Shown here: positions 3,780 through 14,613 of the stretch, piece by piece
Layout of the letters: every line of letters begins with the position of its first letter
Numbering within the stretch: position 1 is the first letter of the stretch
IMG/VR virus record: IMGVR_UViG_2671180846_000020
DNA from: a virus
Lineage: Duplodnaviria > Heunggongvirae > Uroviricota > Caudoviricetes
Strand: one strand, 5' to 3'
DNA: 29,281 bases
The notes under the pieces: model-generated
What the model was told of the DNA's origin: nothing
The model's input: only the letters and a program-made list of their open reading frames with translations
Databases searched by the model: none
Position numbers and translations under genes: made by a program

Positions 3780-5450
3780 AATGTCCCCAGACAATTCTCT
3801 GGGGGATTTTTCATGATCAAAGAGACTGTTACGATGAGTCATAAGGAACTCCACCGACTTCAGATTATTCAGGAGTCAATTAATCGACATATTACTCAGG
3901 AACAAGCTGCGGCACGCATTGGCATTTCTATTCGGCAGGTTAAACGTCTGGTGCAACGGTATAGAAATGAAGGGCCTTCTGGTCTGGTTTCCCACCGACG
4001 TGGAAAGCGTCCTAATAATTCCTTTTCTACTGAATTCAGAGCAACAGTAATTTCACTCCTCAAAGGCCGTTACGCTGATTTTGGACCTACGTTTGCGTGC
4101 GAAAAATTGCGCGAGATACACGGTTTATCTTTATCCGTTGAAACTCTCAGAAAGTGGATGATAGAAGAGGGGTTATGGCGTGAACGCCGTCGTAAAATTG
4201 CCCGTATATATCAACGCCGCATGCGACGACCATCTTACGGTGAACTGATCCAGATTGATGGCTCACCTCATGACTGGTTTGAAAATCGAGGCCCCAGATG
4301 TACACTGATCGTTTTCATTGATGATGCCACCAGTGCGTTGATGGCGTTGCGTTTTGTGCCTGCTGAAACAACCCGGGCTTACATGGAAACCCTCCGGGGT
4401 TACCTTAATGATCATGGCGTACCGCTCGCTCTCTACTCTGATAGACACAGTATATTCAGGGTAAATAACCCAGAGCGGGAAGGTGAGCTGACCCAGTTCA
4501 CTCGTGCGATAAAGACACTGGGCATCGAGCCAATCCATGCCAACAGCCCGCAGGCAAAAGGGCGGGTAGAGCGCGCCAATCAGACACTACAGGACAGGCT
4601 GGTCAAAGAAATGCGGCTTCAGAATATCAGTGATATTGAAACAGCAAATGCATGGTTGCCGACCTTTATTGAAGCCTATAACAACCGGTTCGCTACGTCG
4701 CCTCGTACTACTGATAATGCTCATCTTGATGTGCACCATTCTGAAGAGGAACTGGGTTATATCTTCAGCCTACAGGCGAAGCGCGTTCTGTCTAAAAATC
4801 TCACTTTCCAGTACAAAAGCAGTGCGTTTCAGGTACGCAGTGAGGGCCGGGGATATCGACTTAGGCATTCGGTTGTTACTGTATGTGAGAACTTTGACGG
4901 TGAAATTAACGTTCTGTATGACGGGAAAGCGCTGGGCTGGGAAAAGTATGTTGATGGCCCGGAGCCTATACCACTGGATGATGAAAAGAGTGTCCATGAA
5001 CGAGTGGATAATGCCCGTATTGATTTACGCTCAAAATACTATGTTAAATCTAAAGCTGACCATCCCTGGCTTACGCGCCGAACGCAAAGTCATCAGCAAG
5101 TTAAGCCCCCGAAGTTACCTAAAAAGAAGCCTGATCCCGATAAAATAGATTGAAACCAAGATCGATTCGGTTGAGTGCATATCCATTCATAGGGTAGATT
5201 CTTAAGTCGCGTTTCTGATGTTCATTTTCGGGTGGTTTGTTACTTGTTTTACCGGGGATATGCCAGAAACGCGCTGAGTCAGTCTGGGCGGTGCGCGTAA
5301 TGAGGCGTTATGGTAAATAGCCTATGCTAATGTCCGCTAAGAGCAAGAAGCGGAAGTTGGCAGTTTTGTGGACTGTCCCCACAAAAGTGACTACAGAAAT
5401 AGTTGCAATTCATAATTGATCATGGGTTGTCAGTTAAACTCGTGGCGATT
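3780..5450 (+). mobile_element. insertion sequence carrying a single DDE transposase (IS481/ISNCY-like); ends not resolved
   Basis: One 446-aa transposase gene with no phage role sits between the replication genes and flxA. I could not identify terminal inverted repeats or a target-site duplication by eye, so the boundaries are approximate. Confidence 0.45.
3813..5153 (+). CDS. DDE transposase, integrase-core (rve) type with N-terminal HTH
   Basis: N-terminal HTH (ITQEQAAARIGISIRQVKRLVQRY) and a D-D-E catalytic pattern (LIQIDGSPHDW ... LALYSDRHSIF ... QAKGRVERANQTLQDR) with the basic residue after E typical of the retroviral-integrase fold. Confidence 0.85.
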   Translation: MIKETVTMSHKELHRLQIIQESINRHITQEQAAARIGISIRQVKRLVQRYRNEGPSGLVSHRRGKRPNNSFSTEFRATVISLLKGRYADFGPTFACEKLREIHGLSLSVETLRKWMIEEGLWRERRRKIARIYQRRMRRPSYGELIQIDGSPHDWFENRGPRCTLIVFIDDATSALMALRFVPAETTRAYMETLRGYLNDHGVPLALYSDRHSIFRVNNPEREGELTQFTRAIKTLGIEPIHANSPQAKGRVERANQTLQDRLVKEMRLQNISDIETANAWLPTFIEAYNNRFATSPRTTDNAHLDVHHSEEELGYIFSLQAKRVLSKNLTFQYKSSAFQVRSEGRGYRLRHSVVTVCENFDGEINVLYDGKALGWEKYVDGPEPIPLDDEKSVHERVDNARIDLRSKYYVKSKADHPWLTRRTQSHQQVKPPKLPKKKPDPDKID

Positions 5451-5589
5451 TAAATAGACTAATTGGGAGTGCGTCCATTACTTATATCTTGTAATGTTAA
5501 CTATCAGAAATGATACAAAGATAATATGTCTTTAAAGAAAAGGCTGATGGCGAAAAGTGGCCCGATGAGGGCCACAATACGGCTGTCAC

Positions 5590-5922
5590 TTAGACGTAAA
5601 TATCAATGGTGCCAGCGGTATTTGTATCGTCTTTTTTCTCTTCTTTTTTATCAGGCTGAACTGTCGCGTCTTTATTCTTTTTCTCTGCCTGCTGCCTTAA
5701 CAACTGCTCCAGTTGAGCCCTGAGGCTTTCAATTTGCTTCTGTACCAATGCAGCCATTTCTTTTTTCTGCTGTGTCGTCATCCCCTCTTCCGATGAGATT
5801 TTCCCAAGCTTTTCAGTCAGCACCTGAATTTGTCTTGTGATTTTGGCTATTTCTGATGTTCCTTCCGGGGCGGAGTTGTTTGAAATAACGGTTGAGGTAT
5901 TTCCCTGAATTGTGACAGACAT
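5590..5922 (-). CDS. flxA: FlxA (FliA-regulated protein)
   Basis: 110-aa protein MSVTIQGNTSTVISNNSAPEGTSEIAKITRQIQ... recognised as FlxA of the Qin prophage; a sigma-28-type promoter lies upstream. Confidence 0.8.
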   Translation of the reverse strand: MSVTIQGNTSTVISNNSAPEGTSEIAKITRQIQVLTEKLGKISSEEGMTTQQKKEMAALVQKQIESLRAQLEQLLRQQAEKKNKDATVQPDKKEEKKDDTNTAGTIDIYV

Positions 5923-5945
5923 AGATTTCTCCTTTTAAAAAAGCA

Positions 5946-5972
5946 CTATCGGCATGCACAAAAAAATCTTTA
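5946..5972 (-). promoter_or_regulatory. sigma-28 (FliA) promoter for flxA
   Basis: On the minus strand TAAAGATT-N11-GCCGATAG, a close match to the sigma-28 consensus TAAAGTTT-N11-GCCGATAA, just upstream of flxA. Confidence 0.55.
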
Positions 5973-6124
5973 ATCGTATTTCTTGTGTCATTAATTGTTT
6001 GATGTTCAGATTGTTTTCCTCGCGGGCTGGCGCGCCTCAGAAAGTAAAGCTTGTTGACAGGGGTAAACGTTCGGCAATAATTTTCTGCCGCATGCGGGTG
6101 TTGCATAAAACGTGCTACGTTCCT

Positions 6125-6430
6125 TTATCGACAGGTCAGGTCACCGCTCACCCGCCGACGAGAAAGCAACACTGACATGCTAAAGCAAAAAATAGATGAA
6201 TAAGTTGAGTTGTGCATATGTAGCCTGACCGTCACAAAGTATATGGTGTCTGTACCAGTAAGATGATGGCCGGACTCTTTAAAAACGAGCTGACCTGCAC
6301 AATACAGGATGGACTTAGCAATGGCTGCTCCTGGCACAAAGCGGACAGTGATCACCGTTCTTACGACTACTTTCTGACTTCCTTCGTGACTTGCCCTAAG
6401 CATGTTGTAGTGCGATACTTGTAATGACAT
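6125..6430 (-). CDS. doubtful ORF, 101 aa (YdfV-like by position and length)
   Basis: Length and position match the YdfV ORF annotated next to relB in Qin, but the composition is not protein-like and its start lies inside the relBE operator. Confidence 0.25.
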   Translation of the reverse strand: MSLQVSHYNMLRASHEGSQKVVVRTVITVRFVPGAAIAKSILYCAGQLVFKESGHHLTGTDTIYFVTVRLHMHNSTYSSIFCFSMSVLLSRRRVSGDLTCR

Positions 6431-6454
6431 TTGTAATTACAAGAGGTGTAAGAC
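6395..6454 (+). promoter_or_regulatory. relBE promoter and operator
   Basis: The palindromic repeat TTGTAATGACATTTGTAATTACAA lies immediately upstream of the relB start, as in the known relO operator. Confidence 0.6.
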
Positions 6455-6694
6455 ATGGGTAGCATTAACCTGCGTATTGACGATGAACTTAAAGCGCGTT
6501 CTTACGCCGCGCTTGAAAAAATGGGTGTAACTCCTTCTGAAGCGCTTCGTCTCATGCTCGAGTATATCGCTGACAATGAACGCTTGCCGTTCAAACAGAC
6601 ACTCCTGAGTGATGAAGATGCTGAACTTGTGGAGATAGTGAAAGAACGGCTTCGTAATCCTAAGCCAGTACGTGTGACGCTGGATGAACTCTGA
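6455..6694 (+). CDS. relB: RelB antitoxin
   Basis: 79-aa protein MGSINLRIDDELKARSYAALEKMGVTPSEALRLMLEYIADNERLPFKQ... recognised as RelB; its stop overlaps the relE start (ATGA). Confidence 0.9.
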   Translation: MGSINLRIDDELKARSYAALEKMGVTPSEALRLMLEYIADNERLPFKQTLLSDEDAELVEIVKERLRNPKPVRVTLDEL

Positions 6695-6981
6695 TGGCGT
6701 ATTTTCTGGATTTTGACGAGCGGGCACTAAAGGAATGGCGAAAGCTGGGCTCGACGGTACGTGAACAGTTGAAAAAGAAGCTGGTTGAAGTACTTGAGTC
6801 ACCCCGGATTGAAGCAAACAAGCTCCGTGGTATGCCTGATTGTTACAAGATTAAGCTCCGGTCTTCAGGCTATCGCCTTGTATACCAGGTTATAGACGAG
6901 AAAGTTGTCGTTTTCGTGATTTCTGTTGGGAAAAGAGAACGCTCGGAAGTATATAGCGAGGCGGTCAAACGCATTCTCTGA
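6694..6981 (+). CDS. relE: RelE mRNA interferase toxin
   Basis: 95-aa protein MAYFLDFDERALKEWRKLGSTVREQLKKKL... recognised as RelE, translationally coupled to relB. Confidence 0.9.
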   Translation: MAYFLDFDERALKEWRKLGSTVREQLKKKLVEVLESPRIEANKLRGMPDCYKIKLRSSGYRLVYQVIDEKVVVFVISVGKRERSEVYSEAVKRIL

Positions 6982-7100: not shown

Positions 7101-7157
7101 NNNNNNNNNNNNNNNNNNNNNNNNNNNNNNNNNNNNNNNNNNNNNNNNNNNNNNNNN
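7101..7157. other. run of 57 N (gap or masked sequence)
   Basis: Uninterrupted N characters in the supplied sequence; it interrupts the hok gene. Confidence 0.99.
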
Positions 7158-8979: not shown

Positions 8980-9732
8980 ATGAACCTTGAAGCCTTACCA
9001 AAATATTACTCCCCAAAATCTCCAAAATTGAGCGATGACGCTCCAGCGACAGGCACCGGTTGTTTAACAATTACGGATGTAATGGCAGCGCAGGGGATGG
9101 TGCAGTCGAAAGCACCACTTGGGTTGGCCTTATTTCTGGCAAAAGTTGGTGTTCAGGACCCTCAGTTTGCGATTGAAGGCCTGCTAAATTACGCGATGGC
9201 ACTGGATAACCCGACATTGAACAAATTGAGTGAAGAAATCCGGTTACAGATTATTCCTTACCTCGTGAATTTTGCCTTTGCTGATTACTCCAGGTCTGCG
9301 GCAAGTAAGGCTCGCTGTGAGCATTGTTCAGGTACGGGATTTTATAATGTATTGCGCGAAGTGGTGAAACACTACCGACGCGGGGAATCTGTAATCAAGG
9401 AAGAATGGGTGAAGGAACTATGTCAGCATTGCCATGGTAAGGGTGAAGTCAGCACAGCGTGCAGAGGGTGTAAGGGTAAAGGGATTGTTCTGGATGAAAA
9501 AAGAACCCGGTTTCATGGCGTACCGGTATATAAGATTTGTGGGCGTTGTAATGGAAACCGGTTTAGTCGTTTACCGACCACGCTGGCACGACGTCATGTC
9601 CAGAAGCTGGTACCAGACCTGACCGATTATCAGTGGTATAAGGGGTATGCGGACGTCATTGGTAAACTGGTAACAAAGTGCTGGCAGGAAGAAGCATACG
9701 CGGAAGCGCAATTGAGGAAGGTGACGAGATAA
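8980..9732 (+). CDS. late-gene antiterminator Q (phage 82/21 type)
   Basis: Positioned just upstream of a terminator and the lysis genes, with multiple CxxC zinc-binding pairs (CEHCSG, CQHCHG, CRGCKG, CGRCNG). Start taken at MNLEALPKYY. Confidence 0.7.
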   Translation: MNLEALPKYYSPKSPKLSDDAPATGTGCLTITDVMAAQGMVQSKAPLGLALFLAKVGVQDPQFAIEGLLNYAMALDNPTLNKLSEEIRLQIIPYLVNFAFADYSRSAASKARCEHCSGTGFYNVLREVVKHYRRGESVIKEEWVKELCQHCHGKGEVSTACRGCKGKGIVLDEKRTRFHGVPVYKICGRCNGNRFSRLPTTLARRHVQKLVPDLTDYQWYKGYADVIGKLVTKCWQEEAYAEAQLRKVTR

Positions 9733-9837
9733 ATGATTTTTGCTGAAGATGGCGACATGATGTTTGCATTTTTCAAAAAATATGGATAAAATTTTTTCAA
9801 CGATGGGCTTTGTATACCCGACGTTAAGAAAAAGTAG

Positions 9838-9868
9838 AAAACCCGCTGATGAGCGGGTTTTGTGCTTT
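9838..9868 (+). terminator. rho-independent terminator downstream of Q (tR'-like)
   Basis: Hairpin CCCGCT-GATG-AGCGGG followed by TTTTGTGCTTT, about 105 nt after the Q stop. Confidence 0.6.
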
Positions 9869-10153: not shown

Positions 10154-10366
10154 TCATGAAAGGTAAACATTGGCAGCTGAAGGGCCACGCAGACCATTTA
10201 TCCGGCAAAATTCCACGCGTAATCCGGTGGTAATTTCTTCTGCATCGCGGAGATTGAGCGCTGAAACATGAAGCTGGACATCGATACGACCATCGGATGG
10301 GGTGATAAGACCCTTGCCGCTTTTGCCGTCAAAGGTTTTGACAATTCCTGTCATTTTACGGGACAA
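10154..10366 (-). CDS. cspF: cold-shock-domain protein (CspF/CspH-like)
   Basis: 70-aa cold-shock-domain protein [26 protein letters not shown]..., divergent from the cspB-like gene. Confidence 0.75.
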
Positions 10367-10666
10367 AAAAATTCCTTAATACTGATAACTTGGCGCACTA
10401 TACACACGTTCCTGAAGAAAGCTATAGTTTTTTGATGGGGTTGAAGATGGCTGGATGTCTAAAATAAACATTGCTTCATATGTTCAACTATGCGTTAATG
10501 ATTGCGTCGGTTTGAAGAACAGACGATATACGAAGTAGTTTACTAAAGCAGTTCTCATTTCAGGTGTTATTCACTTATTCCTTCTTTGAGTCTCTCCAAT
10601 TAAGTACGAAGTCGTTTCTGTTATGCAAACCATTTATGCCGAAAGGCTCAAGTTAAGGAATGTAGA

Positions 10667-10882
10667 ATGTCAAATAAAATGACTGGTTTAGTAAAATGGT
10701 TTAACGCTGATAAAGGTTTCGGCTTTATTTCTCCTGTTGATGGTAGTAAAGATGTGTTTGTGCATTTTTCTGCGATTCAGAATGATAATTATCGAACCTT
10801 ATTTGAAGGTCAAAAGGTTACCTTCTCTATAGAGAGAGGTGCTAAAGGTCCTGCAGCAGCAAATGTCATCATTACTGATTAA
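10667..10882 (+). CDS. cspB: cold shock protein CspB-like
   Basis: 71-aa protein [38 protein letters not shown]... with the RNP motifs of CspA-family proteins; long upstream leader. Confidence 0.8.
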
Positions 10883-11163
10883 AATTCATCGCTCGTCTGT
10901 ATACGATAACGAAGAAGGCTGATGCCTGAGTAGAGATACGGACAGAGTAGTGAATATTGGATCTCTTTAATAAAAAGTAAGGAGGTCCAATACATGAAAC
11001 AATGGCTAGCATATTTGGCAAAATCTTAATCAGGAAAAGTATGCTAACCATTGTGGTGAAGTGCAGGTTTGCTGCATGAATAGTTTCACAGCAGAAGCTA
11101 ACTGCTGGCATCGCAAAACAAAGTGCGTAAGTGGATGACTCCCACAAAAAGCACCACAATCTC

Positions 11164-11190
11164 AAACCCGCTCAGGCGGGTTTTTTATTA
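11164..11190 (+). terminator. rho-independent terminator
   Basis: Hairpin CCCGC-TCAG-GCGGG followed by TTTTTTATT, about 280 nt downstream of the cspB stop. Confidence 0.55.
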
Positions 11191-11245: not shown

Positions 11246-11416
11246 TCAGGCTACAGCTTTAAGATTTGTCTGGAATACTTTGTTGCAATGAGGGCAGATC
11301 AAAAGGGCACCTTTTTGTACTCTTGAAAAACTGTGTTCTGACTCTTGGGTGCAGTTTGGGCAGGAACATTTAACGAGATAATTACGGCGTGATTTTGAGT
11401 CTTTACGTTCTGACAT
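11246..11416 (-). CDS. small zinc-ribbon protein, 56 aa (absent from the ORF track)
   Basis: Read directly from the minus strand: MSERKDSKSRRNYLVKCSCPNCTQESEHSFSRVQKGALLICPHCNKVFQTNLKAVA, with two Cys pairs (CSCPNC, CPHC) and an AGGAAAA SD upstream of the ATG. Confidence 0.45.
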   Translation of the reverse strand: MSERKDSKSRRNYLVKCSCPNCTQESEHSFSRVQKGALLICPHCNKVFQTNLKAVA

Positions 11417-11635
11417 AGGCTTTTCCTGTATAATGGCCGTATACAGTACACTAAATATGAAAACATTTCTCGTATTATTATTTTATATATGACTTTCTTT
11501 CAAAATAATTACTCACATTTTTAATGTGTATGTTTCTTTAGCGCCGTTGAGAACAACGTGTGCTGTCAAAACTACCCCGTAGACTCCGATCTTTTTCAAA
11601 CATATTGCACCATCCGTGTACATCGGGGTGAGGAT

Positions 11636-11851
11636 ATGAAATCAATGGATAAGTTAACAACAGGTGTTGCCTATGGCACATCGGCGGGTAATGCTGGTTT
11701 CTGGGCATTACAGTTACTCGATAAAGTAACTCCGTCACAGTGGGCTGCAATCGGTGTGCTGGGTAGCCTGGTTTTTGGCCTGCTGACGTATCTGACAAAT
11801 CTTTATTTCAAGATTAAAGAAGACAGGCGTAAGGCTGCGAGAGGAGAGTAA
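11636..11851 (+). CDS. class II holin, phage 21 S-type pinholin
   Basis: 71-aa protein with a dual-start MKSM motif, two TM segments and a basic C-terminus ([13 protein letters not shown]); it precedes a SAR endolysin. Confidence 0.8.
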
Positions 11852-13191: not shown

Positions 13192-13553
13192 GGTAATATT
13201 AAATCGGAACATTTACATCGCGGAATGTAAAATTTAAATAAAAAGGACTCTTCCATGAGCCAAAATTCCTGAAATCTTAAGGGTAAGATAAAAGGTCTTA
13301 ATCAGAATGACACGTTTTATTAATAAATAAAGCTATTCTTTCATTGCTGTGTTTTTCTTTACAAAAGTAATCCTTGCTATGGGTGGTTAATCATGCGTTA
13401 ATGGTGTTCTGGTTTGTTACAAATTTATCTGAAGCAGTCATTGTTATAATTTTATTATTTGTACCTCTTGAGATTTCCTTGTTGGTTTTTCTCTCTGATA
13501 TTTTTTTTCGGACCATTCTGCCCAAGGGCTAATTTCTTCAAAAGGTAATAATT

Positions 13554-13766
13554 ATGTCTAACAAAATGACTGGTTTAGTGAAATGGTTTAACCCTGAAAA
13601 AGGTTTTGGTTTCATCACGCCGAAAGATGGCAGCAAAGATGTGTTTGTCCATTTCTCAGCAATTCAGAGCAACGATTTCAAAACATTAACTGAGAATCAG
13701 GAAGTTGAATTTGGTATTGAGAACGGACCTAAAGGTCCTGCCGCTGTTCATGTAGTGGCGCTTTGA
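13554..13766 (+). CDS. cspI: cold shock protein CspI-like
   Basis: 70-aa protein [70 protein letters not shown]; long AT-rich leader upstream. Confidence 0.85.
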
Positions 13767-13967
13767 GGTAGACAATATTACAAACCATATTCACTTTAGA
13801 TGCCCGTGTTGTCATGGTTCCCAGTATAGAACATCATCTTTTGATGTTTCTGACATGAATCCTTTCGGGGCAAAATGTATCTTTTGTAAATCAATGATGA
13901 TTACATTTGATAATATTTCACAATACTTAAATGCCAGCCGTCTGTCGTTGGATTTAAAAAAGTGAAA

Positions 13968-13995
13968 ATGAAGGCTCCTTCGGGAGCTTTTTTGC
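13968..13995 (+). terminator. rho-independent terminator
   Basis: Hairpin GGCTCC-TTCG-GGAGC followed by TTTTTTGC. Confidence 0.6.
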
Positions 13996-14037
13996 TTGGT
14001 ATCTATTCGATGGATACTCACATACTACGGTAACATC

Positions 14038-14268
14038 ATGAAAAAAATCATAGTTTTTTTTAACTCTGAACCAGCAGTGGTAGTGCCAGCGATGACTGGA
14101 GTTAACACCATCATGCGTGAATATCCAAATGGCGAAAAAACACACCTTACTGTAATGGCCGCAGGGTTTCCATCTCTGACCGGAGATCATAAAGTCATTT
14201 ATGTAGCCGCGGATCGACATGTTACTTCAGAAGAAATTCTGGAAGCAGCAATAAGGCTCTTGAGTTGA
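14038..14268 (+). CDS. hypothetical small protein, 76 aa
   Basis: ORF beginning MKKIIVFFNSEPAVVVPAMTG; no recognisable motif. Confidence 0.45.
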   Translation: MKKIIVFFNSEPAVVVPAMTGVNTIMREYPNGEKTHLTVMAAGFPSLTGDHKVIYVAADRHVTSEEILEAAIRLLS

Positions 14269-14436
14269 TTTGATGCTATTGTATTGATAATTCAGGAAAA
14301 TTCTCTTTGTCTGTTTGTGTAAAATTTAGACTATCGTATGTTGATTATTGCGATGTTTCATCTTATCTTTTACACGTTTGCACCATATAATCGACTTACT
14401 GTGTAACTGGAAAGTCATAACAGACTAAAAGAGGAA

Positions 14437-14613
14437 ATGATGAATATTGAAAACTTAAAAACAAAAGCAGAAGCAGATATTTCTGAATATATAACAAAAA
14501 AAATTATTGAACTTAAGAAAAAGACCGGGAAAGAAGTTACCAGTATTCAGTTTACCGCACGGGAAAAAATGACGGGTCTTGAAAGCTATGATGTCAAGAT
14601 TAATTTAATCTGA
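14437..14613 (+). CDS. gnsB: GnsA/GnsB-family small protein (absent from the ORF track)
   Basis: Read directly: MMNIENLKTKAEADISEYITKKIIELKKKTGKEVTSIQFTAREKMTGLESYDVKINLI (58 aa from ATG 14437, 57 aa from ATG 14440), with an AAAAGAGGAA SD. Confidence 0.75.
   Translation: MMNIENLKTKAEADISEYITKKIIELKKKTGKEVTSIQFTAREKMTGLESYDVKINLI

Follow-up and report, generated by a model that had tools for sequence, protein, structure and literature searches.

The ynfU Gene in a Qin-Type Prophage

The 29,281-nucleotide stretch of Caudoviricetes DNA considered here (IMG/VR record IMGVR_UViG_2671180846_000020; "the window" refers to this whole stretch) carries on its minus strand, at positions 11,246 to 11,416, an open reading frame (ORF) that on translation gives MSERKDSKSRRNYLVKCSCPNCTQESEHSFSRVQKGALLICPHCNKVFQTNLKAVA, i.e., 56 amino acids followed by a TGA stop, exactly as the original prediction had described it. 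The gene is ynfU (b4776), and the prophage that holds it is lambdoid and of the Qin type. The genes of the window run in the order ydfU, ydfT, cspF, cspB, ynfU, the essD holin gene, ydfR, rrrQ, rzpQ, cspI, ynfQ, ynfR, ynfN, and gnsB, which is the arrangement of the Qin prophage of Escherichia coli K-12 (where the run cspF, cspB, ynfU, essD, ydfR, rrrQ, rzpQ, cspI is shared). The gene ydfT encodes the Q antiterminator (Pfam Antiterm), and cspB is the convergent neighbor of ynfU and its conserved partner. The P21-type holin gene, away from which ynfU is indeed transcribed, is part of the context and lies outside the ynfU unit. Coordinates are collected in Table 1.

The identity of the protein is clear from several directions. 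The profile search that had been proposed for the 56-residue sequence places it in Pfam family PF23499 (YnfU) with E = 2.5e-31 and 107.7 bits against a cutoff of 27 (residues 1–49 of 49), and in the NCBIfam family NF038384, "YnfU family zinc-binding protein," with E = 7.9e-23 and 79.8 bits against a cutoff of 36 (positions 1–51 of 52); like the members of that family, which have about 50–60 residues, it is a stand-alone protein with two knuckles 18 residues apart. In genomes with the identical sequence RefSeq labels the ORF "ynfU: putative zinc-binding protein YnfU" (WP_001405948.1). The 1.6 kb surrounding ynfU occurs without a single difference in many E. coli O26 and related genomes, and over its entire length, excepting a masked run of N, the window matches E. 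coli O26:H11 str. 11368 at 100% identity. The K-12 protein, at the same locus and likewise of 56 residues with the same two CPxC knuckles, is its ortholog with 96% protein and 99.4% DNA identity; the window protein departs from the K-12-type sequence at two positions (D6N and K53N), and the window prophage, unlike K-12 Qin, retains its complete complement of head and tail genes. That the ORF is a real gene is far beyond chance given the Pfam and NCBIfam scores, the 86 relatives, the ratio of nonsynonymous to synonymous substitution rates (dN/dS), and the third-position variation described below. Of 5426 complete E. coli genomes, 1649 carry ynfU, mostly in a single copy, so it is an accessory gene.

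YnfU is already a known protein: it is named, annotated, placed in curated families, and its translation has been demonstrated in K-12. Ribosome profiling of stalled initiation complexes first revealed it, and a chromosomal SPA tag provided confirmation; it was reported as the most abundant among the small proteins newly identified in that work, and was remarked upon there for "a pair of zinc knuckles" (CPXC) (Weaver et al., bioRxiv 10.1101/511675); PIRT-seq, a later reporter-transposon screen, independently scored ynfU as protein-coding. No functional assignment for YnfU was found in the literature. The description of the ORF as unannotated therefore holds for an ORF track with a 60-residue cutoff and fails against the RefSeq entry, the two curated families, and the published translation. 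YnfU itself adds nothing new here, and the sole added value of the present analysis is the association of ynfU with an islet of csp (cold-shock protein) genes.

Table 1. Coordinates and strands of ynfU, its sequence motifs, and its neighbors in the window.
Feature	Position	Strand	Remarks
cspF	10154..10366	-	Third member of the recurrent ynfU / cspB-like / cspF-like module
cspB with cspA-type thermoregulator mRNA	10506..10898	+	Coding sequence 10667-10882; RF01766, 161.6 bits
cspB terminator	11164..11183	+	GC-rich hairpin and T-run; 63 nt past the ynfU stop
ynfU coding sequence	11246..11416	-	56 codons and TGA; small basic Cys4 protein, predicted zinc ribbon
Second zinc knuckle, C41-P-H-C44	11285..11296	-	Read from sequence
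First zinc knuckle, C19-P-N-C22	11351..11362	-	Read from sequence
Shine-Dalgarno-like ACAGGAA	11423..11429	-	6 nt upstream of the ynfU ATG; read from sequence
Candidate -10, TACTGT	11443..11448	-	Aligned to the conserved GTGTAtGGT block
Alternative sigma-70-like match, TTGAAA-18-AATAAT	11474..11503	-	10/12; consensus scan
P21-type holin gene (essD/essQ)	11636..11851	+	Divergent from ynfU; PF04971, E=4.4e-34

Linkage to Cold-Inducible csp Genes

The surroundings of ynfU were compared over a context set of 80 loci, one per species, searched with the window proteins. A csp gene lies within 1 kb of ynfU in 56 of these, a convergent cspB/G/I-like gene within 700 bp downstream in 38, and a cspF/H-like gene then follows in 34, which is the same arrangement as in the window. 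An enterobacterial genome has roughly nine csp genes in about 5 Mb, so the probability of such adjacency arising by chance is well under 1%. Twelve diverse loci were sampled for the cspA-type thermoregulator, the mRNA element of the cold-inducible csp class, and in every one the csp neighbor of ynfU has it at full length (Rfam RF01766, 82–186 bits). The physical linkage of ynfU to cold-inducible csp genes is conserved. Clustering of the neighboring ORFs further revealed a YnfN-like gene near ynfU in 21 loci, usually divergent and about 150–400 bp upstream, and a gene for a YmcF-like Cys-rich small protein (PF23641) in 8. The YmcF/YnfQ-like proteins share with YnfU their small size (about 60 residues), their two Cys pairs, and their place in the same csp islets; they constitute a separate Pfam family, and no sequence similarity to YnfU was detected.

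The remaining flanks are varied chromosomal genes, such as those for a LysR regulator, short-chain dehydrogenase/reductase enzymes, ATP-binding cassette transporters, and flagellar proteins. In the more distant genera, Hafnia has ynfU, a DUF2058 gene, and then a cold-shock domain (CSD) gene, in Cronobacter a CSD gene and a YmcF-like gene lie 1.9 kb away, and in Edwardsiella ynfU is flanked by a CSD gene on both sides; Erwinia is an exception in that ynfU adjoins fliE. Across Enterobacterales, then, ynfU is tied to cold-inducible csp, YnfN-like, and YmcF-like genes, mostly outside prophages.

No comparable association with phage late or lysis genes was found. Homologs of the late genes of the window (holin, ydfR, lysozyme, Rz, Q, and ydfU) lie within 6 kb of ynfU in only 11 of the 80 loci, namely five in Escherichia/Shigella together with a mislabeled "Veillonella" metagenome-assembled genome (MAG), two in Citrobacter, and one each in Superficieibacter, Yokenella, and Enterobacter.

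Several contigs of the set bear labels from outside Enterobacterales. Those of the Veillonella parvula MAG (locus L003, JAGZPX010000007.1), Vagococcus sp., Kocuria sabuli, and a Bacillota MAG (with the first, loci L025, L039, and L041) hold enterobacterial ynfU loci, and L003 matches the window at 100% identity over the greater part of the Qin late region. All four most likely stem from contamination or mis-binning and not from horizontal transfer. Separately, in Superficieibacter and Citrobacter amalonaticus the region 130–1000 bp upstream of ynfU contains Rfam matches to the small RNA STnc100 (L031, 5740–5869, minus strand; L081, 4969–5101, minus strand).

Copies in Phage Genomes

A YnfU homolog is encoded in eight deposited phage genomes. 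Five of these are nearly identical E. coli lambdoid phages (e.g., HannyBb) in which ynfU is divergent from the holin gene as in the window; the same orientation is seen in Klebsiella phage ST13-OXA48phi12.4, whose copy (57% identity) is without csp genes, and in phage PHB10 a ynfU / csp / cspF module sits beside integrase and umuDC genes. Both the holin-side and the integrase-side positions are typical cargo sites. The case of ynfU also shows that a gene located between Q and the lysis cassette of a lambdoid prophage need not be a phage regulator and can be a stress gene captured from the host.

The original prediction had implied that YnfU might be among the DNA- or RNA-binding regulators of phage regulatory regions, and such a reading would entail a zinc-finger protein acting on lysis or late genes and comparable to Mu Com or P2 Ogr. 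There is a resemblance: Mu Com (PF10122) and P2 Ogr / P4 Delta are small Cys4 proteins of temperate phages, and YnfU matches them in size and cysteines and is basic as well. Com binds mRNA, and Ogr and Delta activate late transcription. The location immediately upstream of the holin gene and in divergent orientation to it in Qin-type prophages, the five E. coli phages, and the Klebsiella phage speaks for this role too, as does the plus-strand element TGTATAAT, which overlaps the 5' end of ynfU and faces the holin gene. Unlike Com and Ogr/Delta, however, YnfU is for the most part encoded outside phages, the majority of copies having ordinary chromosomal surroundings, and the scarcity of late-gene homologs near ynfU has been noted above. 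PHROGs has no family for YnfU, no match to Ogr/Delta was found, and Com gave a single subthreshold match (E = 0.0011) in one distant member. The PHB10 copy lies near the integrase gene and distant from the lysis genes, and YnfU is produced in uninduced K-12, where the Qin prophage is defective. Since ynfU is found mostly outside prophages and beside cold-shock genes, the regulatory role in the phage cycle is unsupported and we give it little credence; binding of DNA or RNA as such is possible.

A role in prophage defense or superinfection exclusion, or another lysogenic-conversion function unrelated to cold shock, would suit the classic cargo site between Q and the lysis genes, the orientation against late transcription shared by many lysogen-expressed cargo genes, and the accessory distribution in E. 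coli. We regard this as very improbable: the PADLOC defense models gave no match to YnfU at E ≤ 0.1, ynfU lies outside any recognizable prophage in most genera, and the tight conserved linkage is with csp genes, not with defense genes.

One further observation concerns HannyBb (L088), where positions 4085–6846, from a Q-like gene to ynfU, hold about 20 consecutive annotated ORFs of 30–55 codons on one strand. This run looks like an over-called non-coding region, possibly a tRNA or repeat array.

Family Spread and Selection

The one-genome-per-species collection yielded 86 confirmed relatives of YnfU. Homologs at 52–96% identity occur in Escherichia, Citrobacter, Klebsiella, Raoultella, Kosakonia, Enterobacter, Kluyvera, Lelliottia, Atlantibacter, Yokenella, Salmonella, and others, and distant small members at 30–45% identity, which still score as YnfU family, occur in Hafnia, Mangrovibacter, Cronobacter, Edwardsiella, Erwinia, and Shimwellia. 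An exhaustive hidden Markov model (HMM) search of 1.84 billion representative proteins returned only 44 matches at E ≤ 1e-3 and gave no link to a characterized family. Because all distant small members that were checked score as YnfU and are of Enterobacterales origin, the family appears, as judged from these sequences, to be confined to that order.

The frame is under strong purifying selection. It is intact over at least 45 codons with the Cys motif in 78 of the 80 species loci, the median pairwise dN/dS across the 78 copies is 0.106, and variation falls mostly at third codon positions. The window protein has five cysteines, four of which make up the two CPxC knuckles while the fifth is C17; the four knuckle cysteines are kept in all 78 species copies and C17, which is specific to Enterobacteriaceae, in 76. 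Loss of the cysteines or disruption of the frame in close relatives had been named as grounds for abandoning the original prediction, and neither was seen. Of the three alignments used, A2 takes in the most distant members and A3 comprises 46 sequences. C22 is invariant in all three, C41 and C44 are so in A2 and A3, and C19 is invariant in A2 and at least 90% conserved in the other two (A1 and A3). The full set of invariant residues in A2 is C19, P20, C22, L39, C41, and C44, with S29, P42, and F48 nearly so, and in A3 residues E27, H28, R32, V33, and K35 are also nearly invariant. The window protein is a single domain of 6.4 kDa with an isoelectric point (pI) of 9.4, and all homologs are basic (pI 9.0–10.0).

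This pattern bears on whether YnfU might work mainly by way of its metal, be it as a zinc buffer, a zinc sensor, or a redox-sensitive Cys4 switch, with no specific macromolecular target. The four invariant cysteines, the conserved C17 and near-invariant H28 of Enterobacteriaceae, and an abundance that is relatively high for a small protein would all accord with such a role. The strong conservation beyond the ligands (S26-E27-H28-S29, R32, V33, K35, L39, and F48) instead argues for a specific interaction surface, and no zinc-homeostasis genes are linked to ynfU; a purely metal-centered function seems to us highly unlikely.

Predicted Fold and Resemblance to Other Zinc Ribbons

The two Cys pairs (C19/C22 and C41/C44) have zinc-ribbon spacing, as the original prediction had noted, and the proposed structure prediction bears this out. 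An AlphaFold2 run with 28 close sequences gave a poor model, with a predicted local distance difference test (pLDDT) score of 61; with 46 more diverse sequences the score was 75 overall and 80–86 in the core. The latter model has strands at residues 14–18, 25–29, 38–40, and 47–49 and a short helix at 30–35, which corresponds to the two-hairpin, two-knuckle topology of a zinc ribbon. Because the four cysteines are invariant, YnfU most likely binds one zinc ion via C19/C22 and C41/C44 within this predicted fold.

Resemblance to proteins of known structure is weak. A sequence-profile search of the PDB gave archaeal L44e at E = 0.008, Tim15 (a DNL zinc finger) at E = 0.015, and PA0128 at E = 1.5, and most members of the YnfU family give subthreshold Pfam matches to DUF7836 (33 of 46) and to the PhnA/YjdM ribbon (32 of 46). 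We treat all of these as generic zinc-ribbon resemblance, i.e., as leads and not as relationships. The N-terminal ribbon of PhnA/YjdM (PF08274; Pseudomonas aeruginosa PA0128, PDB 2AKL), with its CxxC...CxxC pattern of similar span, is the most consistent named family outside YnfU (best E of 4.8e-5) and the sole recurrent subthreshold Pfam match with a named structural relative; a moderate modeling match of YnfU to the zinc domain of PA0128 has also been described (Weaver et al., bioRxiv 10.1101/511675). The window protein scores 22.4 bits against PF08274, short of the Pfam gathering score of 30.8, and so is not a member, and YjdM has an extra C-terminal domain where YnfU is the ribbon alone. 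The archaeal L44e/eL42 proteins have a long insertion between the knuckles, unlike YnfU, and neither they nor the Methanosarcina acetivorans ribosome zinc-finger protein 9o17_AZ nor Tim15/Zim17 is a statistically convincing match. Small zinc ribbons in the PDB are disproportionately ribosomal, and matches of YnfU to ribosomal ribbons are accordingly expected from the base rate.

The main rival to the reading we favor (set out below) takes up the same fold in another sense, with the ribbon serving as a protein-interaction module and YnfU as an adaptor or regulator that would bind a larger protein such as a Csp, RNA polymerase, a protease or chaperone, or a membrane complex. The top structural neighbors of the model are LysW carrier proteins, which are protein-binding zinc ribbons, the weak whole-ribbon profile match to Tim15/Zim17 is to an Hsp70 escort protein, and zf-DNL is subthreshold in 8 of the 46 YnfU members. 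Small proteins are for the most part expected to act in this way (Weaver et al.). We consider the adaptor role possible and the first alternative to keep in mind, well behind the cold-shock reading.

Expression Signals Around ynfU

The Shine-Dalgarno (SD) sequence of ynfU is plausible, as had been claimed: it stands 6 nt from the ATG, and nearly all of 28 aligned species retain its CAGG core. When the upstream regions of all genera are aligned, conservation is limited to about 45 nt before the ATG and follows a fixed order, with a GTGTAtGGT block (TA..GT invariant) about 30 nt before the ATG, then CC.TT, CAGGA, and the ATG itself. The most fitting interpretation of the block is a -10 of the sigma-70 type (TA..GT) accompanied by a weak -35, and from its alignment we infer that TACTGT in the window is the -10 of ynfU's own promoter, which would give a short 5' untranslated region (UTR). 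The alternative consensus match farther upstream (Table 1) is not conserved in sequence outside Escherichia. Judged by eye, none of the sigma-54, sigma-32, sigma-E, or sigma-28 readings fit the block.

A thermosensor or SD-sequestering hairpin in the ynfU 5' region was also considered and dropped, as RNAalifold over 28 genera gave no conserved pairs; the E. coli region does have a TGTATA/TATACA inverted repeat. Scanning the window at Rfam gathering thresholds returned the two cspA thermoregulators alone and nothing on or antisense to ynfU. At the 3' side, the hairpin that terminates cspB has a short U-tract when read on the minus strand and may be at best a weak terminator for ynfU.

On the plus strand, TGTATAAT at 11,427–11,434 is a perfect extended -10 that overlaps the ynfU 5' UTR and SD region and aims at the holin ATG (11,636), about 200 nt downstream. 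Its equivalent in other genera is not a promoter match, and it could be either a holin-proximal promoter specific to Qin-type phages or a chance occurrence.

Proposed Role of YnfU

The reading that we favor, with a probability of roughly 55%, is that YnfU is a zinc-ribbon protein that would bind RNA or an RNA-associated partner and that belongs to a host cold-shock islet carried as prophage cargo. Across Enterobacterales the islet is made up of ynfU and a ynfN-like gene together with two csp genes, one convergent, cold-inducible, and cspB/G/I-like and the other cspF/H-like; in some cases a YmcF-like gene is present as well. In Escherichia the set rides in Qin-type lambdoid prophages as cargo (morons, accessory to the phage cycle), at the site flanked by the Q antiterminator gene and the lysis cassette. 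There ynfU stands alone as a unit, with conserved SD and candidate promoter sequences close upstream, and would lie outside the lysis and late-regulation circuitry of the phage. The conserved basic surface of the ribbon, formed by the SEHSxxRVxK loop and the K/R-rich N-terminal tail seen in Enterobacteriaceae, could bind RNA or an RNA-associated partner, for which the ribosome and a Csp chaperone are candidates, and YnfU may in this way act beside the Csp RNA chaperones in cold or stationary-phase adaptation. The gene ynfU may also be co-regulated with the cold-shock genes.

The more specific parts of this picture deserve less confidence than the whole. A particular RNA or ribosome mechanism is a tentative suggestion, and the still bolder idea that YnfU is an unrecognized component of the cold-shock response, an RNA- or ribosome-binding partner of Csp proteins within a co-inherited islet that lambdoid phages have captured repeatedly, is on the doubtful side.

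A number of points weigh against the cold-shock reading. Binding of RNA or DNA by YnfU is something that we infer from sequence, and the fold and sequence searches returned generic zinc-ribbon matches alone, all below significance. A nearby csp gene is missing at 24 of the 80 loci and in Erwinia, and in both ST13-OXA48phi12.4 and HannyBb ynfU stands by the holin gene without the cspB/cspF pair, so the pre-holin site recurs in some phages. Many characterized bacterial small proteins bind larger proteins and not nucleic acids. The expectation cited above that most small proteins act by binding larger ones counts on the same side, and YnfU was detected at normal temperature in exponential and stationary phase (Weaver et al., bioRxiv 10.1101/511675). 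A literature search for the expression of ynfU/b4776 after cold shock, or for other expression data, found none.

Other Features of the Prophage

Besides cspB and cspF, the lambdoid prophage of the window carries a second cold-inducible csp gene, cspI, with its own cspA-type thermoregulator at 13,408–13,793 on the plus strand (RF01766, 112.8 bits). Downstream of it, at about 13,777–14,613 on the same strand, lies the run of small genes ynfQ, ynfR, ynfN, and gnsB; ynfQ (YmcF-like and Cys-rich) is listed as cold-shock induced in one paper, and cold induction has been reported for ynfR (21 residues). Since YnfN-like and YmcF-like genes recur beside ynfU in other genera, the ynfQ/ynfR/ynfN run and these neighbors together suggest one dispersed cold-shock gene set.

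Just past the Q antiterminator gene (stop at 9732), a promoter-like TTTGCA-18-TAAAAT at 9763–9792 on the plus strand is followed by a GC-rich hairpin at 9838–9861, which doubles as the cspF terminator on the opposite strand. The layout at 9763–9861 resembles a lambdoid pR'/tR' unit by analogy, and if it is one, Q-dependent late transcription would run antisense to both cspF and ynfU.

Finally, positions 7101–7157 of the window consist of 57 N in place of 163 nt of E. coli O26:H11 11368, inside the region of the hokD type I toxin gene, and this run looks like intentional masking rather than biology.
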